Positions 1 through 52,600 of a stretch of 64,000 nt of DNA are shown piece by piece; positions within the stretch are counted from its first letter, which is position 1, and each line of letters starts with the position of its first letter. The notes below the pieces were generated by a model. The model worked only from the letters and a program-made list of their open reading frames with translations, searched no databases and was not told the DNA's origin. The position numbers and the translations under genes are program-made. Where the stretch lies: the NCBI GenBank assembly GCA_003971905.1, contig RSEE01000060.1, positions 62,001 through 126,000 on the forward strand, read 5' to 3'. This DNA is from Moniliella sp. 'wahieum'. Its lineage: Eukaryota.

Positions 1-1110
1 ACCGTGGACGGTAACCGGGGTAACCGGTTATACGTATAACCCGTAACGCGTAAACGTTAAATGGTGGAGGGCTAGTACGTTTTGTGACATGTGACATCTA
101 AAAGTACACCGAGTCGTGTGTACACCACAGCGATTGTGGGTTTGAGAAGGACCGTTACACGCTACGCGTTACATCATACCATACCGGGTTACTCGGTCAC
201 ATGTTGCACGCTACATGGATGTTCCGAGTCACTATCGCCTGTGGGCACACCGAAGCACCCAGATGCATCCAGAGGCTGTGAAGGGCACGATTGGGGGGGG
301 GGAAAGTGGGAGACACTCGCTATGAGTCTCGATCCATTTAGATCTTAGAGAAAGTGTGCATATACGTACCATAGCGTAGAATAGCATGATGCATGGGTCA
401 GATGAAGCTTGGAGCTTGAAGCTCTTGAAGCTTGAAGCTTGAAGGCCGGAATAGTGGCACAATAATCTGAAGCTTTTGAAGCTTGAAGAAGCTTGAAGAT
501 GTTTTGCCGCCGTGTGATAAAGTGTTTCTGCCACAAGCATATGTGGATTGGTTATCTCGATCATCGATTATCGACTAATCTACCATGCACAACTGCACGA
601 TGTATAGGCACGAGATCGTTGAACGTTGACACATTGACCGTTGATACGTTGATCGACCTAGGAAGAGAAATATATTGGACCCATGTGGATTCAACATATA
701 TTCAACACGGCTGAAGTTCAACGTTGTTCAGCCTTGAAAACGTACGTTCAACGTTCAACGTTCAACGTTCAACATTCGCTGTTCACTATAGTTACCTAGT
801 TACCGGTTACCGGCACATGCACAACTTGAACAGGTCCTTTATGACGGAGAAGACATAACGTTCACGACGTTCATGTCATGATGAACAAGTTCATCGATTC
901 ATTTTCATCGAATGCATCGATCCTCGCTCAGGCGCTCAGCTGAGCGCTGCTCGTCGAGTGATTATCGAGAGTATCGATAAACCATCTGCGTCGTTAACGT
1001 CATTAACGTCATTAATCATCGACCTCTTGAATATGGTGGACTGTGGCGAGCGAGGCTCTCGGGAATATTAGTCGCAGTCACTAGTCACATGTCACATGTC
1101 ACATGTCACA
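1..1110. repeat. Island of 7-bp-period palindromic repeats
   Basis: AAGCTT-G x2 at 428, AACGTT-C x3 at 750, ACTAGT-C-(ACATGT-C)x3 at 1080-1107, plus degenerate ACCGGT/ACGCGT units. Confidence 0.9.
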
Positions 1111-14651: not shown

Positions 14652-16352
14652 TGCGAATGGGTTCCTGCACAACGGGGAGAGGAGAAACGTTAGTCGGCCA
14701 AGGTCCCGCACACGCCAAAACCCACTGTAATGATCCGGCGGGGAAGCGGCAGCTGGCAAGAGGAGGGCAGGAGAAGACGCCGCTTCCAAGCGCGGGTGGG
14801 CGTCGATCCTCAGCGCATCCACCAGCGTGCCATCCAAGCCCAAGAACCAGCTTACCTTGAGGCCGCCCGGCTGTCGTGCTTGGTGCGTGGATGAAGAGGC
14901 GGGGCCGGTGGCCGCCAGCCTAGAGGCCGTGCCGAATCGGAGAGGAGAACAGCGCTGCTAGACTGCCCAGTGCCCACTTCGGGGTTTCGTCCAGTACGGG
15001 GTCGCTGTTGGCGCAATTATTCTTGGCTTTTCCCGCCAACCCTAATACCACCGCTACTTGACTATGGCAGCGAAGCGCCGGGCCTTAACATGCTGGCCGC
15101 CGGATGCCTCTGCCATGTTACCTGCAGCAGCACGATGCCACCACCAGGCCCGAATCTTCCATCGGCGTCCAATCATCGGCGTTCCACGTTTTTGCTCAGC
15201 CCCTCTATCCTTTCGGTCACGTTGCCCTTTCTTGGCCGCCCTAGTTTTCCAGAATAGATGGATCTCTCGGCGCTGGCGTCCGCCACACAGCCGGCAGATT
15301 ATATGCAAGTGATACTAAAAGCCCGCTCAGTGGTTATCAACGCATCCCGCCCTATATGCGGGGGAATATAGTGAGTCCCAGGACTTCCTGCAGGGATGTA
15401 TGGTCCTATGGACCTAAAGGGATGTGTATGATGCTTGGATTGATCGAACACGTATCGGTCACCCAAGAGCCTATCGTTCCTATAGCCACTTCCTTCAGGA
15501 CTTACTCTTAACCGTGTCTCCCTGTTTGGCGTATAGTATAAACCACCGGCATGCCAACATTTGTCCGGCTCTCCCATTTGTATCCTTCCTCTGTTGGAGC
15601 TGTTGAAGAGATCCCACTCTTGAAATAGAACTGCTATCTCTCTCTCTTTCCCCATCTTTCACAGATTGTGCTCTTTGACGGCCCACTGGTGTAGTGGCGC
15701 CGGCAGCCCAAGCCGGAACGTTCGGGTTCAACGTGCATCTCCTGTGGAATATTCCTTCCTGGCGCAGGAATATTCTCTAGCCTCCGTCCGTAGCCCACGC
15801 ACTCATGTGCAATGCAATACATTATCAACTGTCTGCTCTCTAGTCTTCCACAAGCCCGCATCCCTCTTCATCGGCAGAGCTTTTTGCCTCGTCTTCCACA
15901 CTTGTATAGGGTGCAGCTTGCATGTGGGTGGAGACTCTCCAGTGATACATAGACACGTGGCATAGAAACAGGCGCAAGGTCAAACAGAAACAAAGTCGGA
16001 TTCCCAGTCCAGACATATTAGCGACTAGGATAAGTCATGTGACAAAGTCTGGTCGTTCTGGGCAGGCTAGCAAGCGGAACCATAGGGAAAAAGTGGGCGC
16101 AAAATGAAAGAAAATGCAGTTGCCGTGTTGGGAGACCAGCATAAAACCGGACGGGGTTGAGGATTTGTGGAAATGCGGAAAGGCGCAAGAGGCGAGATGG
16201 GAGTTAGATACCACTCGAGAACGGATGCGGGTGCGTGCGGTCGAGTGTTGGAGTGATGGTGGGTTTTGAGAGATGATGGGGAGCAGCAAAGAAGGAACAG
16301 CAAAACCCCTTAGGGTAGAGATAGCGTCCCATACAGAAGCTGTATGCGTTGA

Positions 16353-17950: not shown

Positions 17951-18881
17951 GCGGAAGTCGGAACTGTGTGGTTGCCGAGTTAGATACGCCGATAGAAGGG
18001 TGATCATCGATCAGTTTGATCTATCGCAGAGAAGTTGCTACTCATCACGTCGGCGGCAGCAAGTACCAAGTGTTCTGCTGAAAACGCGCTCAAACATAGC
18101 ATAACGCAGGAACGCGTAACGCGTAACTACTAGCCAGCGGCTTCTAGCGTCTCCTCGTCCTCAGTGTACTCAGTACTAGTTACTAGCTTTGCTACTGCGG
18201 CCTCAACGAATTCAACCAACGTACAATGTCACACAGCGCCACCACCGGCCACCGTGGATTGCGGCAACTTGCAAAACACCGTGCACACCCACATATTTGC
18301 TCAAAAGCTCTTGCCTCCACGTTTTTCCTTCCTTGCCGCCCAGTTGCCGCCCACGGGTGGGTCGAGGGTGGGTCGGCCACCCATATGCAGAGGTGGAAAT
18401 GCACCATGGATCACGCTCGATGCGTCCTGTCCGTGAGCCTCAGCTGAGGCCTGAGCCTCAGGCTCATTGCAGAGTTTCAGGGTCTCGCTGCTCAAAAGCC
18501 TCAAAGTCAACACCAGGCACCGTTTCATGCCATTCCCGGCCATCGGCCATCCCACACGGGGGGTACCGCTACTCCGTAGAGACTATAGTTTTTACTGATA
18601 CGTGATGGGCAGATGCGCTGACATGGCCTGTGGGTCGCATAGCCCCCAGGGTGCCGCGTGACGCGTGTGACGTCTGTGCTGCACGTTACCTATTTACCTG
18701 TACTTATTGGCCTTCTATACGTGTCGCAAAAATATAAGCTTCGATCAAAGACATTTGCTGATGCGCTGAAGGTTTGCAGAGGGCACACCAGGGCATATAC
18801 CGGGGCATACCCGAGACTTCAAGATGTTGGGCCGATATGGTATGGTATGTCTAGCTGCCGGAGGAATACCGGTAGGGACCA

Positions 18882-19118
18882 TGTAGGACTGGGACGCCCC
18901 GAATTCATCGCCCCAAGGCGGATGAGATCGTGATGATATCGAATGCTGAATGAGGAGTGGAATGGAGGATGTGGTTCTGAGGAGAGGTACAGGAGGCTAT
19001 GAGAAGGGTAGGGCCTTATATAGACGAGGGTACCGCGGAGCTGAGGGAGCGTCCGGGCGGATAAGAGGGGGGTGATGACTATCACGCAGGATGGCGTGAT
19101 TGGGGCATCGCCCCAACA
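18882..19118. mobile_element. Probable diverged solo LTR
   Basis: Ends CCAACA after hairpin TTGGGGC-ATC-GCCCCAA; contains TTATATAG; purine-rich stretch resembles the 60415 LTR; left end either 18882 (TGTAGG, 237 bp, no TSD) or 18944 (TG preceded by TCGAA, matching TCGAA at 19119-19123). Confidence 0.45.
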
Positions 19119-19189
19119 TCGAAACATCAGTAAATCGGTAATCAGTATGTTCGGGAACCTTAATCTTAATCAGGTTGAACGTGCATCAT

Positions 19190-19780
19190 ACTGATCGAAC
19201 TGATCTGAGATGTGAGAGAGCCTGTGAGGATGAGGCGATGAGGGGTTAAATTTAAACGTTAAACGTTAAGGCTAAAGTCGCTTCAAGAGCGTTAAACGCG
19301 TTAAACGTTAAACGTTTAACGCTAAAGCGCTGAAGGGTTTCTCTCGGATTTCAGATCTCAAGCCTACCTCAAGCTTTAGGCCTTAGGCCTCAGAAGTTAA
19401 CCGTAACTCGTAATCACCGGCCCATTGCGGAGGAGAATCATTCATTAGTCAGGCGTTACGCGTTAGGTTTAGGCCTTACGCGTTACGCCTTAGGGCCTTA
19501 GACGCCTCTAACTCAGATCTCAGACTGACCTCATGTGGAAAGCGTCGTGGCAAGCGCTAGTGTGGGCCCAAGATGCTAAGACCTCAATTTCAGAGGCCTA
19601 AGGTTATAGGGGCCGCGTCTGGCTAGGCTGGCTTTAATTCACGAAGTCCTGATCGATGATCATGCATTAACCACTGGCCACAGGTGAGCTCACCGGCCAC
19701 CGGGTCACCGGCCATCGATATCTGGTCCCTTCAGTGGTCCCTGTTAGTCCTCAAATCACTAGTCACTAGTTACCCAGTGG
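19190..19780. repeat. Island of 7-bp-period palindromic repeats
   Basis: AAATTT-A-AACGTT-A-AACGTT at 19248-19267; AAGCTT-T-AGGCCT-T-AGGCCT at 19371-19390; ACTAGT-C-ACTAGT near 19758. Confidence 0.9.
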
Positions 19781-22059
19781 CCCAAGTATAGTCACCACTC
19801 CGATCTTGGTTTGTGCTTCATATTCCTCTTTTCCCACCGTAACACCTGATGAGGGGCTTATTCCGCTGTAGACTGAATGGCATTTGTGTGTATACTGTGT
19901 ATCGAGGGCTGTTACTTTTGGGGGCCACAAAATAGTGAATATAGTATGTGAACGGATGGCGGGGGCACCAACTGGTCCTGCTCTCCTGGCGATTCCCCTG
20001 GTTCCTTAAGCGGGGTTGGCGCTACCGAGCGGCACACACCAAAATGAACGGGTCGGTTAAGGCGTAGCGTTTCCCTGTCCCAGTCTTAAGCTCTGTCAAT
20101 GATATGGATGCAAAAGTATGGAACATGTCCAGATGATCCTGTGTTGTGTTGTGCGCATACAGTACAACATGCACTCGGCTCTATATCTTTTGCCAAGATC
20201 GGCACGTGATCGATCCAAGAATAAGTGTTGTGACTGGGGGACGGGGCTATATATATCCGGAAGTGTGGTTAAGAGTGTATGGTCCCACACTGGCTAAATG
20301 TTTCCATCCCATATCGGGTGTGTATGCCAGTAGCACTCAATTAGCCATATACAAAACCCGCCGTTGGTACTCTTCTTAACCTCCAACACTATCCTATTAA
20401 GCAATCCTATAGCATGTCCTTACCAACAACAGCCTACCTTCTGTCACCCCACCATGGTGGTACTGTGTGGTCGACATCATCGTAGAGACCCAGGTGGGCA
20501 GGGTATAAAATTCGCTCACCTAATCCCTCTTCCATCTCTTTCACGGGCCGACTTTGATACGCATTACACATCCTTCTCTTCCATTATCGATTATCGTCGA
20601 TCCCGCTTTTCGGCTTCTCTTCCCGTCACTCTCAGCTTTTTTTCTCCGTTTCTTTCCCTCTTCCTCTCTCTCGACTCGGCTTCTCTCCCAGTACTATCAC
20701 AAAATCCAAGAACCTACAAAAATCTCTTCTCTTCGTCTCCGTCTTGCTCTCCGCCTAAAAGCCAACACTATTATTATACGCCAGGTTCCGACTTTCTTCG
20801 TTTCCCTGTGTATTCGACATCTCTATGTCTCCTTCGCCACCCTTTTTTTACAAAATCGGCCCTTTCTTTGATCCCACAACATCACGGCCAAGCCACCCCC
20901 CATTTCTCTCCCCTCTCTCCACTTCTTCTAGGTACACTCCCTACTAGATGAACCACCCTTTGGATCAGGTCCCTTGCCCTCCCCACTCATCGGAGCCCAC
21001 CTTCACCTCCGTTGCGTATACAGCTCAACTGCCTCTGGACGCTCTTCTGTCTCTACCCGATGACTATAACATAAGACATTACTCGTGTGATATAGGTTCA
21101 AGCATCAAGCTGGTTGCCATAGTTTGGCTGATATCGCTCCATTTCCAATTTCTTCTTCGTCTCGAGCGTCTCGCTCCATCTTTCCACTTCGTACCATGTC
21201 CTCGCTCATGCTTTTCCCCCAGCAGTTCGGATATAGGCCTGCCCCTCAGCCTGGGGAGGGACTAACTGAAGGGACCATGGCCACGAACGCATGACCCACG
21301 TTCTGGCTCAAACCCCGCAAGGATATCTATATCCTCCACCTCAAGGTTTGTGAGTAGACGAATGATGGTACTACAAGGGCAATTATCCTCAAGGTGAGGC
21401 TCATGATGGTTGTCAAAGGCACTTAGTTGGTTCTCAATGTGTATATCTCGCTTGTTCCACCAAGGTTCAGAGGCTTCAAGGGCGTCATCTGACATTGGGC
21501 TTCACGCTACGCCGTGATGCCTCGGTTCCATGCGTCAGCCTGAGGGAAAGTTCCAGTACGCAGACTATGTCTGTGCGAGAAGACCCAGATGCCAATTCAG
21601 AAAGCAAAGGCACCCGTCTTTCGGCGATTATACGCATCCTTCTCTCTCGGTGTGGTAATAACTGTGGCTAGATCTTAGCCTTCATTAACGTGATTGGGCT
21701 AACAGGGCCATAAAACGATTGCACCGATTGCCGGCGGGGTTAATCACCGATCCGATGCGGGATAGTTGATAGGGTTCGTTCAGCTTGGGATAAAGCACTG
21801 ACCCCGTGCTGGATCCACCGCAGCAGGGATAAAACACACACTGCTCTCTTGCGAGGCCTTTCGGATTGCGCCTGAGCGCGACACAGCCCCTGCGCCAGGC
21901 CGGCATTGCCAGCGTCGAGCACCGAGCAGTCGGGACCACCGCACACGACAGCCTGCTGTCCACCACCTTGAGCTGTCCACAGAACAGGTAAGTCATGCTG
22001 CCGGAGTGTTTCCCTATGGTCGATGCCGAGCGCAGAATGCTGATGAGGCGGGGACAGAA

Positions 22060-22326
22060 ATGACCCGGGGCACGACTTCGTTTGGTCTGCGCCACATCAA
22101 GGCGCACACGCTCTGCCGCCGGTGCGGCAAGCGCTCCTTCCACAAACAGCACAAGGAGTGCGCCTCGTGCGGTTACCCCTCGGCTAAGACGCGCTCGTAC
22201 CAATGGGGCCAAAAGGCTATCCGGCGCCGTACTACTGGCACTGGCCGCATGCGCCACCTCAAGACGGTGGCGCGCAAGGCAAAGAACGGCTTCCGCTCGG
22301 GTGCCCCCAAGGCTGCCTCGGCCTAA
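22060..22326 (+). CDS. RPL37: 60S ribosomal protein L37 (eL37)
   Basis: [23 protein letters not shown]...CASCGYP...[14 protein letters not shown]; 5'UTR intron 21988-22057. Confidence 0.98.
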
Positions 22327-25300
22327 GCTTGTCTGTGTCTACCTATATACTTCGTAGGCTGCACGCGGCGCGTGCATGCTGTACCTCTCCAAAATATGGC
22401 AATTTTGAGCCTCAAGTCCAACCGAACAGATCTATGGCTTGATGGGTTTGCATTGCTATATGAATGTCACTTGGACGAGATGCCGAAGAAAAGGATTGAT
22501 CCGGGCCGTGTTGCCGGGATATCCAGCTACGACAAGTGCCATTTCGCATACGGGATGGACAACCACTGCAGTTCAAGCACATGCTGTCTCCTTGTCCCTG
22601 GCCTACTTTCATCAATCATCCAGCATTGCGTAGGCTTCGCTAGTTTGATTGAGCACAGTAGGTGGTGGCATCTTCGGGGCGAGTGGGATCATTTTGTGCT
22701 CACCTGTGACAGCGAGCAAACCTCGTAACCATGATGCATGCTGTATGATGTGGTAACTGAGATATTTCAGCCTCCGGTTCGGCCCTTCTCGGATAGAACT
22801 GTACTCCACGAGCCTCTGTTTTATGGCCTGACCGTGCAGGGTGAAGGTGCCAGGCTTTGGTTGGCATATCAGCTAAGAGAGACGATGATAAGGTTTTTTG
22901 TCGGGACGGCTTCCTTCCTGCAATTCCGTAAAATAAGAGATCATGCAGATCATGAGAGAGCGCCGGACAAGAACAACTCGCTCCTGCTGGCGAAAGGGAA
23001 ATGAGTTGCGAAAGTGTGGTCGCCGTTTTGGAGGGGGACGCTAAGGCAAATTTGGTATCGGTGTTGTTTTGTGACCAAAAAAAGGCGAAATGGAAAGCAT
23101 TCCTAAGTAGTACGCGTAAGATAAGTATCGCGTTGGCCTGTTGTACACAAGACGCATTCAGCCTTACCACTGCACACCAGCGACTTGAGGGGGTTTATTG
23201 ACGAAGAGACGAGATAGTAACGAGAAGGGAGAACCAAGGATCATTTTGGGTAGCGACTAGAGATGATGGTATGATGGTAAACAAACACGGTCTGAGACCA
23301 TTTATTGTTTCCCCACTTTTAAGGGGCAAGCTAGCTACACCCTCCCCCGCGTCACCTCTATGGTCTCCCACGCTACAAAGGAAAACGTCAGTCGCTACCA
23401 ATCTCAATTCTTCTTGGAGCGAAGCAGCTGACGAAGCTCCCCCTGAGTGCAGGCCACAACTCCACAGCAGAAAGCGCCCACGAAGGGCAATGCCATTTAA
23501 CTTGAGCACATGACCCACCTTGGTTCCCGTATCTTGTCCAAGACCCACTCTGACCGCGGTCTTTTTCCTCTCGAAGCACGTACCCACGACCTCGGTCCCT
23601 TCTTCTCTTCTCGCTAGATCCCAGTCCCTTCGTAGCTTGAGGGTGGCGGGGCGTTATTCTTTATTCAAGGTCGTAGTCACGGAGGAGTGACGCAAGCTTC
23701 CGTGTTCCAAGAATGGTAATGCGCTGTGCAGGAACGCCGTCACCAGATGCCCCGGGGCCCGCCTGCCTTTCCTAACGTCACGTCTCGCCTATATATTCTC
23801 AGTGGGAATGCACCTATGGCTATATATACTAGTATTGTGGGTGATTTTGGTGCTTGGGTCGTCTATACTATCATTGATTCGATAGCGGAGACTGCGTATT
23901 TCCAACATCCGTTGTGTCGCTGTTGGAGTTTGGAGTGCTAGCAGATCAGCTTGATCAACGCTTCAGTACTCAGTACTCAGTCGGAAAAATGAGCACAGGC
24001 TCGTGAGCTCACGCGAGCAAAGCAGAGAGAGAGAGAGGTGGGGGGAGCGAGGCGGTGGTGGATTATGACAGAAGCATCAATCGGGCATAAGGGCAGTTCC
24101 CCGGAGCATCCCCTATCTGGGCTGTCTCGCTCCTTGGATTCTTGTAGTGACGGGGCGCTTGATCCAGAACAAGGAACTATCCCTGCCTATCTGGGCGATG
24201 AGACGAAGAGAACGACGGCCCCCGCCTGCTTACATCTCCGTGGGACCTACTTGTCGCAACCGAAAGACGCCAAGGGATTTGACCCGGCTGATGATGGGGA
24301 TGGCGATGGCCCTTGGGGTGCAGCAGGCGATTGCTCGATGGTCGATATTGACTTGATGGCCCAGGGTTGCCGTGGGAAGAAAAACTACCTCTCCCAACGA
24401 AAAGATTCAAGGTATTTTACCTCAACATATGGCACATCACCATCGTCCTCGTCCTCGTCTGGTCTAAAACAACGCCCCACACCGTCTTCACTCGCCGTGT
24501 GCAGCCTATGGACCTAGATGGCCAGGCGAAGCCCGATACCTCGTACCCCCGCCAACACTGTCCCAATGTTTCTGCATCCAACGCGACTGGTACTCTCAGC
24601 ACGTCCACGAGCCACCAGGCCCCTTATTCCCACTCCTACTTTGATGATCAAAGGGCGGAAGAGTAGATGGAGTTCGACGAAAGTGATCCGGAAGCTATGT
24701 CTGCCGACGAGAAGGTACCGAGTGGGACGTACGAAACACATCTATCGGCGGAAAAGGATGGCAAGCTGGACATTTCAACTGGACACACCTACTATGTCGC
24801 CTCAAGCGGGTTAGCACCAGAAGTGTACGTGCTTCGAACCTCAAGTCGTCATTGTGACAGATCCAACTCACATGACAGCCACCAGTCTCACAACAGTACT
24901 CGGTCAAGAGATTCAGATCGCACCATTGTCGTCACTTGCCGCACCGGAGACGAAGGCGAAGGGAATAGGAAGGACTCGATCAGGTCTGACCTTATCCTCC
25001 CTTTCAGTCTCATGCCTTTCCTTGGGATGTGGCATGCTACCTGATGTTGAGAAACCCCTGCATTCGGATTTTGTTTTTTGTGCAACCACACCACACACCT
25101 CAGTCATGTATGCTCCTTCCCCGACCACATCGCCCTCTCACATTCCCAGTTTGCATCCTCCACCCCCCTTTCCCATCCGCACCGACTACATCCTCGGCTC
25201 TTGTCATTAAAGGCGGTTGTGATCGCCCGAAATGAGGGCACAGAGCATCAAATTCATCAGACATGACCTGAACCATCTCCGTCGCGTCGCTTGGGGACCG

Positions 25301-26871: not shown

Positions 26872-27519
26872 TCTGGAGGGTAGCAGGAAAGAAGCTGGGG
26901 CTGGCTTGCTCACCACCGCCTGGTTTGCTGCGTGCATGGCCGCTGGGTGCTGCTGCTGGCGCCCAGCGCTCCAGCACTCCCAGCCGCCATCCCGGGTGGG
27001 GCCGCAGGCAGCACGGCGCCTGTATGGTCCCAGCTTACAAATTCTGGCCTCAGACCCCGTGCTGGGCCCCGTACTGCGCCGCTGTTCCGTTTCTAATCCC
27101 GCGAACCAGTCCGATTTGAACATTTGCCCTGCGAGCACTGTGTTGATGCATTGCGTACGTAAGACAGGCGACAGTTGAACGTTGAAGTTGCGGCTTGGTT
27201 GCTCCCGCCTCTCCGCGGAATTGGACGTAGTAACCGACCACGCCTTTTACCAGGCACCAACCTCCAAGTACTTACTGATGAATTTCGCGCGACGCGTGAC
27301 GTCGTATCAATCGCCCCAGCCGTCCCTCCGCGCTGATCTTCACCACGCCTCTGCACACCACTCGTCTCGGCAGCTTAACGCTTACCTACGTAATCGCATA
27401 GTCGGCAGGTAATTCATTGATCTACTCCAACACAGTACGTATGGAGAGGGGGATATAAGGCGGTGTGTGTAACGGAGGCATGAAGCCGAAGATGGTGAAG
27501 ATTGGATCGAGGACGACAC

Positions 27520-28270
27520 AGGCTGAGTACTCAGGAGTGTACTGAGTAGTAGGCCTTGTTGAGTACGCAGACCCAGTTGAGAAGGATCATGCTGTGTCTT
27601 TTCATGCAGCACGCTGGGTCTGATGCGCCCTGCGCAAAAGCGCAAAGCCAGTGCAGAGCGCAGATCATTCGACCAACACGGAGTACCAGAGAGCACTGCG
27701 GATCGAATGCACGAGCTAGCGCACTAGCATACCTGGACGTTGGCTCAGCCAGCGGGATTGAGACGGAGGGTGGGGGATGCGTCATGCATGGGTCTGGGTA
27801 TAGTTCTCCAGGGCCTCATACTTCTGGGCGTCAAATTTCAAATAGCCCCAAGAGGCCGCAATATAGGCAGCCTTGAAGCTTGATTGTCGAAGATCGGTCG
27901 TATCGCTTCAAACGCTTCAGGGCCGCAGCCAGCTGTAGCACAGACAATGCGCCGGCACCTAACCGGCATCGTCGGTGGCTAGTTGCTAGTAAAGCTTAAA
28001 GCCATTGACTAGTGACTAGTTACTAGTTAGCGCTTAGCGCTTAGCGCTTTATATTTATAGCAACCACACTACCTGGGGGTTGCCTGGCATGCGTGGCGTC
28101 GCAGTCGCATGTCATGCATGTCACATTGTCACATGTTGCTGTGGCGCTGTGCCTCCGGGAGGCCTACGCACTATGGCGGCTAGACTACAACGACGGTCCT
28201 CAGTATGTGGCAGAAGGTAGACGAGGGAGAACTAGCTGAACTATCGACGATCGATGATCGCATATAAGGC
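27520..28270. repeat. Island of 7-bp-period palindromic repeats
   Basis: Six units in register at 28008-28048: ACTAGT-G-ACTAGT-T-ACTAGT-T-AGCGCT-T-AGCGCT-T-AGCGCT. Confidence 0.92.
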
Positions 28271-29050
28271 GCTGGGGTCGAAGCAGGCAGTGCGCTGGTG
28301 CCACAGAGCGGATGCACTGGCCAGAAACCGGAGCGCTAGCGACGTCGATCCCCGAACGCCACATGCAGGCGCAAACCCAACAGGCCGCAGTAGGTCGCTC
28401 TGGGGGAGCTGGAAGCTTGACACACCGTCCCGCTCGTCCCCGCCCGCTCGCCACTGTTCCGATGGACCGCCGATCACCAGACTGCAGCACAGCACCGGTG
28501 TGGTGCAGTTTTTTTCGCCATCCGCATGGGGCCAGGACGTCGGCCGGCCGCTGCGCTTTGCTTCGCTTCCCGCACTGGAATCGGTGACAGTCATCGATGG
28601 TCAGGACGAGATTGGCAAGTGGCTAGTCAAGTGCTAGTGACGAGCACTGGGGACGCGTGACGCGTGGCAAGGCACGGGGCGAGAGGTTGCAAGGGGCCCA
28701 ACGACGCAGCGCGGGCAGAGGAAGCGCTAATAACCAGTAGCTAGCAACTGCGCTCCCGCTCAGCGCTCAGCGTGAGCGCTGACTCGGCTGAGCCCCGTGC
28801 GTCCCGCCCCACTCCGCCCCGCAATCGGCAATGGAACAGTGGGCTGGTGCCTGGGTGCCGGTGGCTGGTGAGCTATGCCCGCTGACCGGTGACCGGCGAC
28901 CAGTGGGCACAGCCAGAGGCCCCCGCCAGTCTGAAAGACTTGGACAGCGCCGACTGCCTACCGCCTGCACCCCATCCACCTTCTGCGTCGCCCACCACCA
29001 CCACCGCGCCCCTCTCTTCACCCCCTTCCCACATTCTTTTGCTCGGCGCG

Positions 29051-30561
29051 ATGCGTGCTGTGCTGCCGCTTGCCCTTATCCTCGCTGTCGTGCTGGCCGC
29101 CCTGGCTGCGGCCATGCCTTCGCCCGATGCCTTCGCCCAGCCCAACCGTGAGCCGAGGGGCGTGCAGGCTGTCCGCCGCGCCTCGATTGCCCCCCGAGCG
29201 TCTAACAATGTGACCTACCGCCTCCCCACTCCGACCCCTTCTACCTCCGCCCGGCAACATTAGTCTCTACAAGCCCGGCGATGTCATCCGCACCCGTGTC
29301 ATCCAGCCCGAGTAAAGGTCAACGGTGCCGGCCGTACACCCAGATCCTCTACCGCACCACCACACCCAGGGTCACCCCTCGGCCACCGTGACGACTGCCA
29401 TCGAACCCGCCAGCGGATCGCCCCCGCGCATGATGTCCTACCACATCTGGGAAGACTCGACCAACCGTGACTGTGCTCCCTCCTACACCCATCCTCCTCG
29501 GCAACGATGCGCCCAACATCATGGTACTCGGTACGTGATCCCTCTCTCTTCCATTACTGCCTTCATGCTAAACCATCTTCTGCGTGTAGGCGACGATGTG
29601 CCGGTGTGGTTCGACTTTTTGTCGAAAGGCATCACGGTTGTCGGCCCGACTACGAAGGCCCCAAATCTGCGTTGTTTGCCGGATTCCAGGCTGGCTATGC
29701 CATTCTGGACTCGGCTCGTGCCGTCAGGAACTACCTCAATGGCCGGCAGACGCCAAGGTTACCATGACGGGCTACTCGGAAGGTGCACATGTGACCTGCT
29801 GGGCCGCCAACTTGGCCCCGTCGTATGCACCTGACCTCAACATTGTTGGCACTTCACATGGAGGCACAACCAATCGACATGGAGCTTACGCTGCGTCACT
29901 TTGACAACACGTCCTTCTCTGGATTTACGCTTGGTGGCATGCACGGCATGATGGCTGCTTACCCCAAATTCAACCGTACCATTACCCAGCATGCTCAACA
30001 GCGCGTCCTCACCGACCTGGCCAGCATCTACGCGCCTCCTGTCTGCCATGCAATCTGCGTGGCGCCGCCTACGCCAACATTCCTTACATGGAAATGCTCA
30101 ACTTGCCCAGTGGCGATCCCTACAACGATCCTGTCGTGCGTGTTGTTTTGAACCGGGAAACATGTGGAGTAACAAGTCCTCCGTGGGTGTTGGATACCCC
30201 AAGTTCCCCCGTATGATCTATCAAGGCCGGAATGACGATGTTATCAGCTACGCTGCGGTCCAGGCCTACGTCGACCAACAGTGCCAGCACGGCGCTAACA
30301 TTCAGTTTAACATTTACGAAGCCAACGCCCACACGGCTCCGCAACTTGTCATTGGCGGAGACCTGAATGCCATGCTGTTCACGCTCCAGGTGTTGGAGTT
30401 GGACGGCCAAGCCTTTGTGCCCGTACCGTGTGGATCACCCTCCCCACCTTGCTCAACCTGTGACATTGGGCGTCGACGATCTGCTCGGTGGCAACATTCT
30501 TGCTGCCTTCCAAACGCTTTGGAACCAAGGCCAAACCGTGCTGGGCAGCATTGGCTTGTAA
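29051..30561 (+). CDS. Secretory lipase (Candida LIP / CalA-like family)
   Basis: Signal [49 protein letters not shown] nucleophile elbow, [40 protein letters not shown]. Confidence 0.9.
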
Positions 30562-33216
30562 TCCCGTTTTCTTTTTCTTTCCTTTTGTTTGAACTGTATC
30601 CACTCCACCCTCTCTCGTAACACCTCCCTTGCTCTTGTTCTTTTTGCTCTGCCTGTGCACAGCCACATTTTTTATCCTCTTTTGGTCGTCTTGTCACGTG
30701 TCATTGCTACTTCTCGAGTGGTCTATGCCCTTCCATAGCCACCTCTGATGGTAGCTAGGGCTGAACTGTTGGTTTATCCCTCGGACATTTGATCCAAATT
30801 AACACCAGTTTCTGGTTAACTGTATGAATGGCGTGGACCTTGGCAGATGATAACGAGAAGAAGTACCGCCTACCACTGTAGGCATACCAGTGGGCAGCTC
30901 GCTCGTTCACTCTGAACATACTGACACGGACAAGGTGTGCAAATGTTGTTGAGCCGACCTAACCGAGCTGGCGCCCTACTATATGTCAGAAGAGTGCGGC
31001 CCGACCTCGGATGTGCTGGCTCATGCTGGCGTCGCAAGATTGCAACGGAGACGATAAAAAGAGTTGGGGCGTTTTATACAAACGCGCCTTGCCAAACACA
31101 GTACGGCAGCGATGTTTGGCCCGACGGACTGTTCCGGTGACTTCTGCAGAATGGTCGCATCCCGCTCTCACACCCTGCTGCGTTTTCGTAGCATCGGATC
31201 TTGTTCGTAAATGGCCTTCCTGCAGTTCCAAATCATCTCCCCTCTCTTAGGATGCGCCCTTCTGCTCTGCCCGGCGTTGTCGTAGTAACGTCAGAGAACA
31301 TATAACATCCCATGCTTTTCCTTCGTAGTCTCGTGTGCATCTCCCAAGAGCAAAACACTTTGCTTTCCTCATTGCTCCAAAGGGCTTCGTCGGTCATACA
31401 AGGAGAATCGCTCGATAAAATGGTGTGATCCGCGTAGGGTACTTGCACATAATCGATTTAGGAGACCAACGCACCAGTGTGTGCCAGAAAGAGAGAGATA
31501 CGGATTTGGCCAACTGGCGATGCCGGCGCGACACTATTTTGGGCCATACTTTGTGGTGGGCGTGGACTGCATCAGCAACTTGTTGTGGACGATCCCTGCT
31601 GGGACATGATACCTGCGCTTCCCCTGCCTCCCTACCCAAAATTAAATCATCTCCCAGCATCAACAACTCTGTGGGAGCTTCTTTCCGATATGAACTGTGA
31701 CTGTGAACGTTGACGACCACACTCAACAATCAACAGATGCGGCCTCTCGAGCCCCGAAGCAGACCCCGCGGCACGTGACATCGCCGTTGCCCACAGCGCA
31801 TTTATCTCAAGTCAACTTGATGCATGTAGCATGATGCATGGTTGACTGTTGCCATCAACCGTTGGGTCGGACGTGTATCCCGCCCTCGAGACTGTTGCAG
31901 ACGTTGCTGGGATTCTTGGACCGCTGATCTGGACATCATGAACAGGCCACGCGGGCTTGAACATCGTGATCCTGTGATCCTCCCCATATCACTCACTATC
32001 AGAGGAGTGGGGTGGGTGGGGCCAAAGGCCTAAGGCCTCGCTAAAAGGCCTAGCTAAGGTGTGCGCGAACGTTTAGCGTCGGAAATCGCATGAGTCGGAG
32101 ACTGAGCCTCGCCTCAGCGCCATCGCTCAGCCTGAGGTGTTTGTGCTGCAACTGTGGCGGTGACTGGGCGATAATGGGTCTCCTCCGGGTCCTCTGCAGT
32201 GGATTGGGTGGACCCTACTGAGACTACTAACCTGTGGGCCGAACCGAGAAGGAGGATTGCGGCGTAGTGCCAGAGACACTGTATTTAAAAAAAGTGCGGA
32301 AGCGCTGCCTCGTTTCGGATGGGAGTAAACTAATGCCTGGCAGTTAGGGCTTAACGAACAGCGCTATAGTGCTTCTGTGCTGCTTCGAATATGCCCTCGC
32401 CGCCTTTGAATTTCATGCAGGCACATGCCTGTGTGGGTTGCGTTGTTTGCGTTGTCCTCCGTCAAGCGTCGACGTCTCAGAGAAACGCACAACAGTCCAA
32501 CAGGATATATCACGCTGCCCTTCCGTGAGGAGAAGAGCAGACCCTATACTGGGGCGACCCGGACACTCAAGTGACTACCTAAGGCCACGGCAGGCAGGGC
32601 GACTAGCAGTGACTGGTGTTTGGCGGGCGGCGGGCGCAGAGACTGATGCCCCAGTGACATCATTATATTGATGTGAGGCAAGGCAACATCGCAGAGACGC
32701 CACAGCTACGCTCGCGTAAATGGCTCATTTTAAACCCAGCAGCCTGTGATGCACATGCGAAGGCACCGTCTTGTTGCAGCACAAGGGCGCACACCCACGA
32801 TGCTCTCCCAGCGGCAATGTGTGATCCAGGTTGGTCGATGTGCGGGGAAGGGACGGGGCAGTACGCGCCCTAATACCGTTGACAGCATTGGTCGGGCGGG
32901 GGCACAAGCACAGTGTGCGTGAGCTGCCATGGGCAACGGCTGGAGCCAGGGCAGACGCGAGGGTCAGCGCTCAGCCTGGCTCCCGCTCAGGCCGCACCGT
33001 CCCGTCCCCCCTCCATATATTGGCAGTGCCAGATCAGTGCAGGCACTCTACTCACTTGTAACCCCACCATCACCGCTTCCGCTGCAAGAGCAATTCCCTG
33101 CCTTTGAACCAGTAGATCTAACGCCCCAAGGCCGCCTCCCCCATCAATACGATCCACTATCGAACCATGGGCCTGCCCACGGCCGTTTCAGCCTTGGCCA
33201 AACCCCCTACGTCCCG

Positions 33217-36392: not shown

Positions 36393-37594
36393 ATGGCGCC
36401 TGCCATCCCGGCTACTCGACGCTCGTGGTATTTCGTCAAGTACGCAAATGGACCGCTTGACCCGGCCAAGTCGTTCGAGCTGAGGGCGGAACCCATTCCT
36501 GAGCTGAAGGAGGACGAAGTGCTGGTTGAAGTGGACTACTTGGCCGCCGAGCCGTCGATGCGCGGTACCATGCGTTCCACCGAGTCCTACCGTCCTCCTG
36601 CTCCACTCAATCAAGTCTTCTGGGCTCTGGGCACGGGAAAGGTCGTAGCTTCCCGCTTCGCCCCTCTGCCTGTGGGTACCTTCGTCTATGGCAACCTAGG
36701 CTTGACGACCCATGCGATTGTGAATGGACCTCAGGTCACCTCTCCCCGTGCGGGTGCGTTCGCCTTGCGTCCTGTTCCTACTCGCCCCACTAAGAATGGC
36801 ACCATCCTGGACGCGAGGGAATTTATGACTGCCTTTGGTCCTCCAGGGATGGCTGCCTACGTCGGCCTGCTCCACCCTCTGGTCGGAGCCCTGGGACGGT
36901 TCCGCGATACCAAACTGGAGGACGAAGTGGTGCTCGTTACAGGCGCTGGTGGAGCGACAGGGAACTATGTGATCCAGATTGCTAAGGCAAAGGGTGTCAA
37001 GAAAATAGTGGGGATTGCCTCCAAAGGCAAGCGCGATGCCGTGCTCGCTTCCGGTGCTGATGCTTTTGTCGCTTACGACGAGCCCGACTTCCAAGCCCAA
37101 CTCTTCCAGGCAACTGAACGGAAGGGGACATTGTAAGTACCCCTCATTTTACTTCGGAAGGGTCGTCGACCGGCTGAGTGCTAATATTTTGGGGAACAGG
37201 CTATTCGAAAACGTCGGAGGTAAAGTTTTCCAAACCGCGCTGCTGGCCTTGGAGGAAAATCGTGGTCGGGTGGCTCTTTGTGGGCTGGTGAGCCAATATG
37301 ACAGCCTGAAACCCGACGTAACTGTACAGCAAGTCTATCGTGGGGTATTGTTCTGTCGCGCCGGTTGACTGTCAACGGGTTCATTTGCAGTAACCCCATC
37401 TACCAAGACATCAAGCCGTTGAAGGTCTTACGGAGCTTTTGATGAACAACCAGATCCACTCGACCTACTACGAATACCAACCCTCCGGTATTGAGAACGC
37501 TGTGGATGCTATTTTGGCCATGCTACAGGGGAAGAATGTGGGCAAGACCACGATTGCGATCCGTCATCCGTCCGCTGTGAATTCCAAGATGTAA
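36393..37594 (+). CDS. NADP-dependent oxidoreductase, MDR / prostaglandin reductase-like
   Basis: IPELKEDEVLVEVDYL, VVLVTGAGGATG..VIQIAKAKG, FENVGG, GRVALCGLVSQY, ends GKNVGK; intron about 37133-37199. Confidence 0.92.
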
Positions 37595-39491: not shown

Positions 39492-39741
39492 GGTTAGAGT
39501 GCGGCTAGGGAACGCAATGAGCAGCACAAGAGATGAGTTTCAAGGCGTGCAAGAGGGCAGTCCGTCAGCCACAAGTCCTTCAGCAAGCTGAAGCTCTGAA
39601 GGGAAGAAGACAAGAGCCAGCAAGCAAGTCGGAACAGACAAAGGGGTGGCGCAGCCCGCGCAAGGGCGAAACACCCGAACCAGCGAGTGTCACCGATCCA
39701 TTGGAGAGAGTGTAGGTGAACCCTAGCACTACCCGCTAGCA
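39492..39741 (-). mobile_element. Old solo LTR, family B, inverted relative to 44225
   Basis: Reverse complement shares TGCTAGGGTTC, CAATGGATCGGTGAC, CTTCCCTTCAGA, GACTTGTGGCT, CACGCCTTG and GCACTCTA with 44225-44479; flanks CCACC / CCGCC (TSD with 1 mismatch). Confidence 0.8.
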
Positions 39742-42597
39742 CCGCCAGCTCACCAGACAATATTGGTGTGGTAGCGTAAAAAGCGCAAATAAAGACACGG
39801 GGGCGCGCAGGATTATCCAGCGTGGCCTAAAGACTGGCAGAGAACCATGCGATCCACAAAATAAAAGAGGGAGAAATCCTCCACAGCCCACGCTCGGGAG
39901 GAGGTCTGGAGGTATAGGGAAATGCCTGTGTGGTGAATATATTCTGTGGTCCCCGTTCATCCCCTTCTTCGCTATCTTTTGCCAGAGAGGCGACAATACA
40001 GATGACACAAACCAAGAGTGTACCACTCGTGACCAGTGCCTTGTACTCCATGAGGTTGTGGCTGATTGAGAGGTCGGTCAAGAGAATTCGCTCCTATACA
40101 TCGTCGAAACAGAGGCGGATGATTATGATGAGATCAATGATGAGAGAGGTTACTACTAGTAGGGAGGGCAGACACATGATCTTGACAATGGGCAAACGGT
40201 GGCGATATCGTTCGCTTGGGCCAAAAGCAAATCTATTACAGAGGCCATTACCGCTTTTTAGCAAGTCTCTCGCCAGATTGCCCACGCCGGTCACAATAAG
40301 CAGAACGGTGGTGCACGCTTAGAATGAGACACAGATTGAAAAGAATCATTCATTACCCCCTCTCATCCTGGGAGGGAACGGCACCCATAGGCAAATGGCG
40401 CTTCCGACTGGGACAGGTTCTTTTGTCAGAGAGGCACCCCCTCCCAATCAGACCGGGGCGACAGCCCCCTCTCTAATAGGCTCCATATCGCACGATGCTA
40501 ACTGTGCATTGCTTTACCCCGGCGCTACTCTTGATACAGGTGACGGGGTGACGGTGACCGAGCCAGGACGAGCGCATCCTCTCCCCTTTTGTCTCCCTTA
40601 CCTGGGTTAGACCGACGTCAAACTAGGCCGGCTTGTCTCGGAACGTTGAACGCCGCTGAGCACGTTAAGCAAACCCACATGCGCTCTGTTGTGTCCAATT
40701 TAAACGGAACTTGTTCCCATCGATCTATGCAACTAGTAGTAGGATCAAGTCCCTTTCGTACGGCCGAGGTGGCCCGTGCATGAGCTTCTCTGAATCCTGA
40801 CTTAATGATCCTACTCGTCAATTTGGTCTCTTTGGCCTTGGACGCGAGTGTGCTCTAACTTGAGCCTCCGGATCTGGACGTCAGTTTCCTGATCTGAGCG
40901 TTTCCTTCTCGTTGTGTGATGCTCCCCTCATGCCTTTTTGAGTTTCTGCCTGAGGGCGGAGATCCTTTCCTTTACTTGCGCCTTTCTGATTTTGACTGTT
41001 CCTGTTCCTGGCTGAGTGTAGGGACATTTCCTTACTTTGGTTCGCTCCTTTCTTCTGAGAGCCCTTATCTCGATTCCGCCCCTCTTTCGTCGTTGTGTTT
41101 TGCTATTCGTTGTACCTGCCTATATATGACCCTTGATCCGCGCATGATCCTTTTCCCCTCTACTGAATGGTCATTCTCCGTCTTTTTTCTTCTCATTTCG
41201 TCTTGCTTTCGTCATCTTTCTTCGTCATCTTCGTCGTCGTCGTTTCATTCGTCCTCCTTTCTTTCCTCTTCGTCCTTGTACAACATCCCTTACCAATCCA
41301 TCCTTTTCATCCATCACAGGCAACTCCCGTGTTTTACTCTTAGTTCACCATCACAGCAGTCCCACCGACTTTTTGCTTCCAGCGACCATCTCTTGGTCTT
41401 CCAACATCCCTTCGACTGGGTATCCATTGCCGTCGATCCTCTTTCAGTCTCATCTGTACGGATCACATGGCGATCCTACAAGAGAGTTAAATTGTTCTGT
41501 AACAGGACATGTCAAACCCTATCTTTGCCTGCGTCAACTTCCAGCCCGAACTTTAGGACCACACCACTACAGGCGTGCTAGTCTTGCTCGTTTTGGGCCC
41601 ACCGCAACTTGCCGCCACGAGAGCGAACACTCAATGGAGAGGCCTCACATCCCCTCTAGCTCCGTTCGGATCTGCCAGTACAGTGGTCGGGCTTGATCAA
41701 CCGTAAGAACCTGTCCTCCTCCAAGGGAAAGCACCCCTAAACTATGGGCCGGGCCCCAGTCCGGGATCCACCCATGACGGCTCTCACCCACTGAAGCAGA
41801 GCTGGAGAATATATCAGTCAAGGGTTGATGTTACGTTTGGCCCAGGCCACAGTACAGCCGCAGTCCTGTTTCGATGTGAGGAATAGATGAAATCGATGAA
41901 AGAGGAGGCAGAAGCATTGGGATACATTTGGCACTTTGTGTTATTAATAGAAGCGAAGAATGCCGCGCATATACCGTCAAGTATACTATGACGAATGCAT
42001 AGATCTCTCCACGAGAGCTCTCTATTGCGTCGTGGAGAGATGATAGCTTCTTCTGACAGACCCTCTGCGGTCCTGTAGACACTCCGGGTAGGACGGGGGC
42101 CATATCCTAGATCAGACCTATCAATATCAGGCCTATCCGGGCCGTCCATGGTTTGCTCACTTCACGTTCGACATCAACAGTCTGGCCGGGGTGCCAACCC
42201 AGTGCCTCGCTCTTCCGGCAGGTTTGAAGCTTCAATATTCAAGCTTCAAGAGCTAGCATAAAGCACGATGCGTGACGCGTGATGCATGGGCCACCCTTCT
42301 GTACCCTTCTGCACCCTACTCTTCAACCTCAAGCCGCCGGTCGTGAATACTCGCAGTTCGCAGCCCAGGCAAGTAAAACTTCAATTACAAGCTCTGAGGG
42401 AATCGGGGAAGATGCCCATCGCTCAGGCGCTCAGGTCCTCAGGCGCTCAGCAAGCCGCGCGCCACGTTGGATGTGCGCCAGTACTCAGACTGAGTGTACT
42501 GAGTACTACTCAGTGCTGCGGGCTGGACACTGTGACATGCCACACGAGGAAGTGCTATCGGATGATACTCTTAGTGCCTTCAGCCTTCGCTTGCTTC

Positions 42598-42730
42598 TGT
42601 TGGAGAGTAGTGCCTAATGCTGGGGTTCCCCTGCACGGCCCTCGGTAGATCGGTGACGCTCACTTAGCCGGGCGGAAGAGTTCCGCTCGCAGGGCGCGCA
42701 CGCCCTGCTCGCTTCATCTCCCTTCTCTCT
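42598..42730 (+). mobile_element. Truncated LTR fragment, family B
   Basis: Starts TGTTGGAG and aligns with 44225-44350 (GATCGGTGACGCTC...TTCCGCTCGCAGG..GCGCACGCCCTGCTCGCT..CATCTCCCTTCTCTCT). Confidence 0.85.
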
Positions 42731-49650: not shown

Positions 49651-52600
49651 TGACGGGTTGCTTACTGGCCCTTTTCCTTTCCCCTTTCCTTTCCCCTTTC
49701 CTTTTCCTTGTTCCTCTGTCGCACCTCAGTTACCTATTGGCTTGCCCTGATATATGACCACCCTATATATTTCTCCTCCCCTCCTCCTCCGCCCCTCAAA
49801 CCACTCCCCTGCGTGCTGGCCTTCGGCTTGCGGCTTTGTCTCCATTCCCTTGGAGATGCCGCCTTACTATCTTAGCCTGCCCCCTCCCTTCTTCCTCTTT
49901 CGGCTCCTACAACTCAGTTTCGACATTGGCAGGGCGAGGGGAACTCTATGAGAATTCAAGGCAAGGGGTGGGAGGCTGGGGGGCTGAATACTTTTGTTGC
50001 TATTTGGGGGCTCATCGGCCACCAGTGCACGTTCACACGTTCACACGCGAAAGCGCATCTAAACATTACTTCTACGCTCTCGCGCTCATCTTGATGGCCT
50101 GTGGGTGGGTGTTGCGGTTATCAGGTACTGGTATAGGGAGTGTGCCGAGGCCACATACTCGTACAGCCATGCCGATGCTTATGAATGATGTACTGCATGG
50201 CCGGCCCACGACGTCTCGGCTGAAAGGCTGAGGCTGAGTAACTGAACTGAGTGCTCCTGACACCTGACATAGTTTGCTCACTGTGGGGTTTCTGCCGAGG
50301 CATGTGGGACAAAGTGAGGCCTGAGGGCCTGGGGAAGCGCTAAGCTGAGCTCGCGTTGTCCCCGCCGTCCCCACGCTGGCTAGTGGACTAGGACTAGGCT
50401 AGACTACTCTTGCGCAGGTCGGTCGGGGCGAGGGGTGGCTGAAAGCTTAATAGCCAGGCTCAAACTACAGCTGGCTAGCAGCGTGCACCATGCGGTCGTG
50501 GGCGAGTGTTGCGGTGGGGGCACTTTGATCGATCATCGATCCATGCTCGGTGACCGGTGAATGTTGACCGGTGACCCCGTGGGGGCTAGGCACTAGGGAG
50601 GGGGGTGGGACGGTCCCATACATGCCCCCGCGAAGCCCGGTACAAGTGACTGGTGGCTAGGATATAGTGCGTATGACATCACAGTGAAGCTTGAAGCTGG
50701 AGGTCACGACTTCTCAAGTGCCTTTGTTCCCAGGCGCAGTCGCTGCGCGGGCATCTCGAGATTCCCATCTACTCTACCAGATCCATTGTCCTCCCGCGCT
50801 CCTCAGTTCGACATTTGAGTTGGACGTTAGACTGACCAACCCTCGGCCTCATTAATCATTTCGGCTCCGACGCGCGACTGGGGGCATCGATGACGATGAC
50901 TATAGCGAGGCGGAAAGAGACGCAGCTGTATGTAGACACGGATGCATTTCGGTGCTGCTGTGGCTCTCGCGGGGGGCCGGTGAGTTCATCTGCTTGTGGA
51001 ATATGGAAGGCTTGTGCGTGGAGGCCGGAGGGGACGCGTGTTGTCGCAGGTAGTACGGGTAATGTATGTATCTGATGCATGACTCAATGATGAACAATTC
51101 ACACAGGAAAGCGTTTTTGGTTAGAGCGTTTTTATTCGTCGGTCTCGGAGTCTGCCGACCCGGCCGCGCCGACCAGCAACTGCCGAACGCGGAGCATCGG
51201 CCGAAAGAATCCTCAAGACATCCCCCCACACTAGGGCCGTATACTAGGCAGGGACACGCTCTGCTGCTCCACCTACATAGCATTTTTCCAAGAGACGTAG
51301 GCTCGTGTCTCTTTCCATGTCCCAGGCATCGATCATCCCATCGATCCCTCTCCCCCGTCGGGTCCCGAGGGACTATAGGGAGCACCATCCCCGCCTTGCA
51401 TCTTCCTCTCTCCCCTTTCTCTCCTCCGTCGCGGTCGTGTCGGCCATTGCATGAAACCTAAGTATAGTAGCCCTCCGATTCCGGACGCGACGATCGATGA
51501 TTGGTGAAATACCACATAGCTAATCGAAAATGCCGGTAACAAGGTTCCGGATAGATATGTGAGGACTACGTACGAAATTCAAGGTGGGCAAGGCCCACAA
51601 GATTGTGAACCAGAAATTTCGATTAGCCATGCAACGTGTTGTGGGTGGGTGTGTTGGTCAAAACTGTAGGGATTTTTACACAACACAACACTATACGGTG
51701 TTGGGGAACTTGATTGGCTGTGGCTATATATAGAGCTGACTATAGTGAGTGGCGCATACAGATGCATACCACGTGCTTTTTTGTTTGTACCACAGGAGAA
51801 CCCCATTGTTTACCAATGGTAAGTTCTCCAGAACAAAAAAGATCAAGCGCCTAAAAAGTCACGAAGTGAAGAGTGGACGCCAGTCTCCGTCAACGTTCAA
51901 CTTAACTCGTATTAGTATACTCAGTGGGGAAGATGATCGAATGACCGCGCGTCAGTACTCAGTGTTAATAGACGATGTGCTACCTTCCTCTCAGCTTCAA
52001 GCTTCACTAGCACGACTCGAACACCGAACCATTGAATTTATCGGACAACCTACTTTTGTGAGCTGAAGTCCCCTATAGCCAACAGGCCTTTTAGAGGCAC
52101 GAGCAGAAAAAGTTATGTAGTAGTTTTCCCTCTGCCCCTTAGCGTCATCGACCTCATCGATGGCCGATCATTAATTTATCGTCACACGCGTCACCTAACG
52201 TCGTTGCTCTCTTTCTGTGCCTTTGTGTTTCACCCCATTCTTGCTGCCAGAGTAAGACTGGTGTACGTTGCGAAGACTTACTCATAAGCAACCTACAGCA
52301 TACCAAGGAGATCCGGAAAGACACAACGAAGGTGAGACAACGGGGGATCCTCGATCCGAGGACTATAAGTAGGCGAGACGAGGAAGAAATATTTGTGTTT
52401 TTTTGTGTGGTTTCTGCCGACGCCCGTTTGCTCCTCCGGCCACAGGCCACCTCAGGCCGGCCTTAGGCTCGAAGTGGTAAAAGCTTAAGAAGACTACACT
52501 GTATGCATGTGCTATCCAGGGGACTGGCACCTAACATCGCGTTGTTATCATATGCAACGCCAATATCCACCCGCAAGGGTCAAGTAGAAAGGAAAATGAG

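Follow-up and report, generated by a model that had tools for sequence, protein, structure and literature searches.

It was found that the chains of palindromic hexamers in the genome of the fungus Moniliella sp. 'wahieum' follow a single rule. In the elementary event, as read from the sequence, a 7-mer centred on T-N-A appears to be duplicated, and at one or both ends one or two mirrored bases appear to be added. Directly supported are the T-N-A rule, the duplication of 7 bp, mirroring at either end, the even-centred symmetry, and the near-absence of the arrays from coding DNA. It is very likely that a hairpin-type mirroring of the duplicated T-N-A 7-mer made the palindromes, and the arrays are probably stacked excision footprints of a cut-and-paste DNA transposon.

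The window analysed in this study is a stretch of 64,000 nucleotides, positions 62001-126000 of contig C60, in an assembly of 69.5 Mb in 223 contigs. A collinear counterpart of the whole window was found on contig C58, and the two haplotypes differ by 3156 substitutions in 95,072 aligned bp (3.3%). An older duplicate of parts of the window lies on C63/C52, with about 77-83% identity in genes. Segments of the window are present four times, two copies being close to each other and the other two older, with shared gene neighbours, which suggests two haplotypes atop an older duplication of the genome or of a segment. The chains and neighbouring sites are as follows.

28008..28048, unstranded: six A....T palindromic hexamers in a 7-bp register (from the sequence), with fewer units in C58
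28025..28031, unstranded: the heterotypic junction 7-mer AGT-T-AGC, present in both haplotypes
28004..28010, unstranded: another T-N-A site, ATT-G-ACT, which marks the left end of the chain and is the source of its G spacer, altered in C58
27978..28001, unstranded: a neighbouring cluster of like kind, GCTAGT-T-GCTAGT-A-AAGCTT-A-AAG, longer in C58, with a 14-bp indel at 27985
1080..1110, unstranded: the chain ACTAGT-C-ACATGT, in which both halves of the site AGT-C-ACA are mirrored, one unit shorter in C58
19248..19267, unstranded: the chain AAATTT-A-AACGTT-A-AACGTT, lacking the AAATTT unit in C58 (21-bp indel)
19371..19390, unstranded: the chain AAGCTT-T-AGGCCT-T-AGGCCT (from the sequence)
42227..42246, unstranded: the chain AAGCTT-C-AATATT-C-AAGCTT, with one extra unit in C58
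29050..30574, + strand: a secretory lipase gene (PF03583, E 5e-13; paralogs at 74-82%)

The chain at 28008-28048 is intergenic (27126-29050) and precedes the lipase gene by about 1 kb. In T-N-A phase, it reads ATT-G-ACT / AGT-G-ACT / AGT-T-ACT / AGT-T-AGC / GCT-T-AGC / GCT-T-AGC / GCT-T. The C58 version has one ACTAGT and two AGCGCT-like units; the junction ACTAGT-T-AGCGCT is common to both haplotypes and the number of units alone differs. Units to the left of AGT-T-AGC mirror its left half, and units to the right mirror its right half. Thus, AGT-T-AGC may be an unduplicated asymmetric target site and the presumable ancestor of the chain. The history of the 42227 chain would need one substitution in addition to one mirroring event.

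An earlier note on this DNA had pointed out this chain and those at 1080, 19248, 19371 and 42227, and all five sequences were confirmed as described. Homotypic 6-bp palindromes 7 bp apart occur 32 times in the window, against 0.3-2.1 in four kinds of shuffle. A....T hexamers make up 31 of these 32 pairs and all five chains. Since the hexamers are A....T, every junction reads T-N-A, a constraint that the earlier note did not contain.

In the notation used here, a site is x y T N A b c, and a prime marks a complement-mirrored base. In C58:1-200000, there are 349 pairs of TNA triplets with the same N and 7 bp apart, and the 4-bp middle that they enclose is palindromic in 184 of them. The same test gave 5/152 for ANT, 18/390 for CNG, and 24/456 for GNC. 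Palindromic TNA middles number 111 of 182 in the window and 41 of 63 at five loci on other contigs (20 kb). In a metagenome control, which consists of the surroundings of distant, apparently bacterial homologs at 29-37% identity (80 loci, 0.89 Mb), the count was 21/250. TNA pairs peak at distance 7, with 349 pairs against 77-204 at distances 5-13. N is G or C in 151 of the 184 hits, compared with 73% in the TNA background, and all 16 possible A....T hexamers occur.

The middle b c c' b' was found 113 times against 6.0 at the control rate, y' x' x y 95 times against 6.1, and the plain-copy middle b c x y 59 times against 32, where the classes overlap at palindromic sites. The 8-bp classes are raised to 10-12 against 0.4-1.0, and two 9-bp classes to 14 against 0.6 and 10 against 0.8. 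The enriched middles at distances 8 and 9 consist of a full or once-trimmed 7-mer plus one or two mirrored bases. The length of the duplication is 7 bp, and full copies of the 7-mer flank gaps of 1-2 nt. In two-base gaps between copies of TNA 7-mers, after removal of plain duplications, 15 of 16 are P-nucleotides (expected 2.7 ± 1.5), as against 10 of 79 for non-TNA 7-mers (expected 13.2). One-base gaps have no P-nucleotide excess after the same filter (3/6, expected 2.4). P-nucleotides fill two of nine four-base gaps (expected 0.1) and two of three six-base gaps (expected 0.0).

Arrays are nearly all non-coding; 13.4 kb of coding-like DNA holds 4 of the 111 window hits. Their density is about 0.8 per kb, or about 157 arrays in 200 kb of C58. 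They cluster in long intergenic regions, at up to 12 per kb, where solo LTRs also gather; the array-rich parts of the window are 1-3000, 18000-20000, 27000-29000, 42000-52000, and 55000-59000. They are nearly missing from gene-dense stretches and from both full-length retrotransposon intervals of C58. The intergenic region on C63/C52 homologous to that of the 28008-28048 chain is unalignable, yet it carries different arrays of its own.

It was assessed whether different palindromes neighbour each other at a spacer of one base as often as the earlier note implied. For all palindromes they do not: the window has 23 heterotypic pairs at spacer 1, against 15.1-19.7 in shuffles (SD 3.9-4.6), and spacers 2 and 24 have 23 and 32 pairs, respectively. 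In C58:1-200000, there are 54 at distance 7 and 39-65 at 24 other distances. As this amounts to no enrichment, the idea fails if taken literally, but pairs of A....T hexamers are in excess. The window has 11 such pairs at distance 7, against a mean of 3.5 (range 0-9 over 34 other distances), and C58:1-200000, which contains the homeolog of the window and is not independent of it, has 16 against a mean of 5.8 (range 2-11 over 24 other distances). The spacers had been said to vary independently. On the contrary, most heterotypic pairs have the same base in all three spacers (8 of 11 in the window, 13 of 16 in C58); the 28008-28048 chain, with spacer G and then T, is an exception. Exact double-mirror products account for only 5 of the 16 pairs in C58 and 3 of the 11 in the window. 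The other heterotypic pairs need further substitutions or are eroded.

Haplotype differences contain the event itself. Among clean indels, 41 are 7 bp in length, against 20 of 6 bp and 12 of 8 bp. A strict set comprised the 209 clusters of haplotype differences, 4-14 nt in length, that have exact 8-bp anchors on both sides. Nine of the 209 fit exactly a TNA 7-mer that is duplicated with ends mirrored or trimmed, and are not plain duplications. By the same criterion, non-TNA centres gave two fits despite 16 times more candidate 7-mers (4747 vs 300). The polymorphic model-fitting events begin at asymmetric 7-mers. Four cases are listed, the last of which was found by eye.

19400..19408, unstranded: a single site CGT-A-ACT; C58 has two copies with mirrored AG between them, an exact fit
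52527..52538, unstranded: a single site CCT-A-ACA; C58 has CCT-A-AGG-CCT-A-ACA, with the left half mirrored and a new AGGCCT
52060..52068, unstranded: a single site GCT-G-AAG; C58 has two mirrored bases and a copy trimmed by one base
27831..27837, unstranded: a 7-bp haplotype indel giving CGT-C-AAA-TTT-C-AAA, with the right half mirrored and a new AAATTT; an adjacent substitution bars it from the strict count

An 11-bp indel in C60 outside the window combines at a single junction two bases mirrored from either end. By-eye cases at 32019, 58076, and 25670 are, like that at 27831, excluded from the strict count by nearby substitutions. Slippage certainly acts on the 7-bp units as well; 10 of the 43 anchored 7-nt clusters are exact direct duplications. 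The C63/C52 duplicate cannot serve as an outgroup because its intergenic DNA is unalignable. A shorter allele could be a later slippage loss, and the process may no longer be active. The strict events amount to about 0.3% of the substitution count (9 vs 3156), a rate that a few hopping elements could supply without being common.

These indels bear on how one palindrome becomes another. The earlier note supposed paired compensatory substitutions that convert the units, which is contradicted by the junction common to both haplotypes and by new hexamers that are single 7-bp indels. No paired substitutions are needed because palindromic hexamers arise in one step and the heterotypic junction appears to be the unduplicated asymmetric site. 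The part of the claim that symmetry is generated and not merely copied was upheld: plain duplication alone, in a simulation, gave 37 palindromic and 404 other middles, and the observed counts are 184 and 165.

I propose excision of a DNA transposon with RAG/MULE-type flanking hairpins because a fixed 7-bp duplication together with P-nucleotides is the signature of such excision. The transposon would insert at a 7-bp, T-N-A-centred target xyTNAbc and duplicate it. On excision, both flanks would be sealed as perfect hairpins of the RAG/Transib/MULE type, with no offset tip base. A host nuclease of the Pso2/Artemis type would then open the hairpins about 2 nt past the tip, leaving 3' overhangs of 4 nt, one being b c c' b' and the other y' x' x y, and end joining would overlap the overhangs by 4, 3, 2, or 0 nt. 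Full overlap would give xyTN-Abcc'b'T-NAbc or its mirror, that is, a new A....T palindrome in the 7-bp register with the same spacer. Partial overlap would give 8-, 9-, and 11-bp periods with P-nucleotides. Chains could grow by repeated hits at one spot, slippage, and point mutation, and two different palindromes would come to lie side by side where both halves of one asymmetric site were mirrored. I infer the hairpins, the opening enzyme, the transposon, and the direction and timing of events in this scheme.

The steps have precedents. Flanking hairpins occur in hAT, Transib, RAG, and MULE transposition (PMC5499845), excision footprints with P-nucleotides are known from a fungus (PMC5873905), and Pso2 and Artemis cut hairpins two nucleotides 3' of the apex (PMC3299998). 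A toy simulation of the hairpin model gave 172 palindromic and 178 other middles and 52 homotypic A....T pairs, where 184, 165, and 49 were observed; its overlap weights were hand-set from the data, and it demonstrates sufficiency only. The simulation under-produces heterotypic pairs with equal spacers (3/9 against the observed 13/16). Two further points weigh against the model: an offset-tip pattern, b w' x y, exceeds its control as well (21 vs 5.3), and a passage of PMC5751038 describes Ustilaginomycotina genomes as poor in repeats.

The scars appear to behave like a hAT/RAG/MULE excision footprint whose chemistry is known and whose geometry and scale are unusual. As in hAT elements (Ac/Ds), the target duplication is retained with palindromic P-nucleotides from end-joined flanking hairpins (PMC5873905). 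However, Ac/Ds palindromes centre on the complement of the element-adjacent base, whereas c and c' are both kept here, giving an even centre. The even-centred classes count 95-113 against about 6, and the 7-bp offset classes reach at most about twice the control (e.g., 10 vs 5.2 and 6 vs 2.7), with the offset class b c' x' y below the print threshold of 4. Canonical hAT offset hairpins, with a target site duplication (TSD) of 7 or 9 bp, thus leave the main classes unexplained. The hAT TSD is usually 8 bp, and the 7 bp seen here is given only for hAT7 of rust fungi in the relevant section of PMC12730594. Kyakuja (KDZ) elements share the 7-bp TSD and have basidiomycete hosts, reported from Agaricomycotina in the same section (PMC12730594), but the TSD is read here from footprints and no element accompanies it. 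Cryptococcus KDZ elements make TSDs of 4-8 bp (PMC11343200, PMC12810828), and neither of these papers was found to use the word footprint. Kyakuja and hAT7 would be the best leads for the element family.

RAG1/2 coding joints and Transib resemble the scars in having perfect flanking hairpins (PMC5499845) and short P-nucleotides; RAG hairpins are opened 1-4 nt 3' of the tip (PMC2175297). Both the perfect-hairpin symmetry and the short P-nucleotides were found here. RAG coding joints lack a target duplication, unlike the 7-bp duplication here. The Transib TSD is 5 bp in length. Transib was rejected on this difference from 7 bp, and a passage of PMC5751038 reports it absent from fungi. The MULE Muta1 is alike in a flanking hairpin with both full strands, 43+43 nt (PMC5499845). 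Its excision in yeast is more than 90% precise, unlike the scars here. MULE TSDs are longer than 7 bp. PHIS elements (PIF/Harbinger with TWA, NuwaII with C/TNA/G) share a TNA-centred target, and NuwaII occurs in basidiomycetes (PMC4482050). They were rejected, as a 3-bp TSD cannot account for b c at the left end together with x y at the right, and 7 bp are duplicated here.

About 340 kb of the 69.5 Mb were scanned for terminal inverted repeats (TIRs) flanked by a 7-bp TSD, and no element was recovered. The one match lies within an inverted pair of isocitrate/isopropylmalate-dehydrogenase-family genes on C58 (178269-181086), an arrangement that recurs on other contigs. By-eye inspection of large presence/absence differences in 104 kb revealed no TSD of 7 bp; those that are clear comprise LTRs, whose TSDs are 4-5 bp, and a single MITE with a TSD of 2 bp, and there are also unexplained blocks. 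A genome search with seven Pfam transposase families was empty, but these negatives are weak because the positive controls of four were silent and 1-bp coding indels in this frameshift-rich assembly break six-frame searches. Specifically, no genome match was found for hAT (PF05699, PF14372) or KDZ (PF18758, PF18803), whose controls were silent, for MULE (PF10551), whose control was detected in 3 of 14 genomes, or for PF13359 (Harbinger/PHIS). In a Pfam scan of 82 of the 231 long C58 ORFs, mostly the longest and with those of the window's homeolog largely left out, the mobile-element domains were retrotransposon enzymes only.

Other mobile and rearranged sequences were found. A young non-autonomous LTR element at 60415-61804 (1.39 kb, LTRs of about 240 bp, TG..CA) is absent at the C58 site; its dozens of copies (94-99%) often form tandem arrays in which LTRs are shared. 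At least two families are represented by the solo LTRs at 1138-1351, 44226-44479, 45754-45968, and 39492-39747, which are polymorphic between haplotypes and mostly have 5-bp TSDs. Full-length LTR retrotransposons lie at C58:74575-80267 and 109207-114757. The MITE at 51515-51631 (117 bp, CA..TG ends, TIRs of about 14 bp, an apparent 2-bp TSD) is absent in C58, and its ends resemble the CMC/Plavaka type. As the one element seen with CA..TG ends, it differs by its TIRs and 2-bp TSD from Kyakuja, whose 5'-CA..TG-3' termini lack TIRs. At 18589-21425, there are two adjacent inversions relative to C58, several breakpoints of which lie within T-N-A clusters, and 20 bp have moved to another place. Just before the first base of the window, C60 has about 260 bp of a 7-bp/14-bp minisatellite (GTGGACG/GTGGACC), which is nearly absent in C58 and is not TNA-centred. 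TAACCC-like repeats at the start of C58 (1-400) are probably a chromosome end.

As for genes, one further feature helps to place the organism.

52741-54324: a gamma-glutamyltranspeptidase, whose best named match is Tilletiaria anomala (61%), followed by other basidiomycetes

These matches make the organism a basidiomycete, probably one of the smut lineage. Stretches of the ribosomal L6-family (14065-14673; 88-90% identity), L37e (22053-22328; 84-88%), and 14-3-3 (4949-5812; 77-84%) match many other contigs in more than four copies, possibly retrocopies or large gene families. Indels of 1-2 bp between haplotypes are frequent in coding-like DNA at 29050-30570, 9478-11234, and 36420-37136. Non-triplet indels number 16 in the lipase (1.5 kb), 13 in the OPT region, and 5 in the dehydrogenase, some of which may be intronic. 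These coding indels suggest an unpolished assembly, or else decaying duplicates.

Could the scars arise with no resident element? A domesticated or cargo-free transposase-like nuclease (RAG- or Kat1-like) may make 7-bp staggered breaks at T-N-A, the ends being filled, hairpinned, and rejoined. Such an enzyme would account for the same sequence signature and would fit both the absence of an element in the 340 kb scanned and that of the seven transposase families. It has a precedent in a domesticated hAT enzyme that makes hairpin-capped breaks in Kluyveromyces (PMC4763223). Nevertheless, no candidate gene was found in the transposase searches, which are insensitive. No known enzyme combines target duplication with hairpinning of the filled ends when no element is inserted. 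I regard this explanation as unlikely. An equally doubtful extension is that the fungus has its own RAG-like enzyme, which keeps cutting non-coding T-N-A and rewrites promoters as a germ-line form of junction diversity; short of that, the agent would be a transposon of an undescribed lineage that targets 7-bp nnTNAnn sites and forms RAG-type hairpins, and its footprints would account for a visible portion of all intergenic DNA.

The best form of the idea in the earlier note is that template switching during replication (four-point, quasi-palindrome correction) seeds inverted copies and slippage amplifies the 7-bp units. The four-point model can yield short inverted repeats and apparent compensatory changes, and the relevant section of PMC5453318 describes no base-specific centre or fixed 7-bp stagger for it. 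A single zero-loop switch that returns on a 1-nt T match would suffice to write the 7-bp class, and slippage does act on the anchored clusters, as described above. Yet the same geometry is available to ANT, CNG, and GNC, and there is no excess there. In the 8- and 9-bp classes, the point of return lies exactly 7 bp back and has no microhomology, and the 11-bp indel mirrored from each end would need two switches. Complemented spacers (double inversion), which inter-strand switches should produce, are few, 17 against 184 with the same spacer. Quasi-palindrome correction predicts neither the strict T-N-A centre, nor the fixed 7-bp duplication, nor the mirroring at both ends. Thus, template switching seems an improbable source of the arrays.

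It is more doubtful still, and quite improbable, that selection maintains the arrays in promoters as groups of transcription-factor sites or as DNA structures, although they cluster in long intergenic regions, including those upstream of the lipase and its paralog (secreted-protein genes). Against both this and the selection for symmetry that the earlier note entertained, every one of the A....T hexamers is used and the homologous C63/C52 region has different units; in addition, copy numbers vary freely between haplotypes, and P-nucleotides in the gaps are the mark of a mutational process and not of a binding rule. Selection may act secondarily on some arrays. Finally, polymerase stutter at palindromes in sequencing or assembly, which the many 1-bp coding indels might recall, can hardly be the cause, as most arrays are found in both separately assembled haplotypes and avoid coding DNA, and neither the T-N-A rule nor the eroded old copies are error-like.

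Excision by a cut-and-paste transposon with hairpin-sealed flanks is therefore the reading I favor, and its meaning may be considered on that basis. Excision footprints are usually studied at one reporter locus at a time, and no description of a genome-wide pattern of this kind was found in the open-licence PMC and bioRxiv literature. The scars would record the target length, the target consensus, the hairpin geometry, and the opening position of the putative enzyme, and the arrays would be a natural large-sample readout of fungal hairpin end-joining. The TNA statistic may provide a sequence-only test for past cut-and-paste activity in any genome where no element is left. Paired changes that look compensatory can arise without selection. 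If C58 is typical, the 69.5-Mb assembly would hold some tens of thousands of arrays. The C63/C52 comparison indicates complete turnover of an intergenic region with retention of the signature. Much of the new non-coding sequence in this fungus appears to come from footprints, as one of its main sources.
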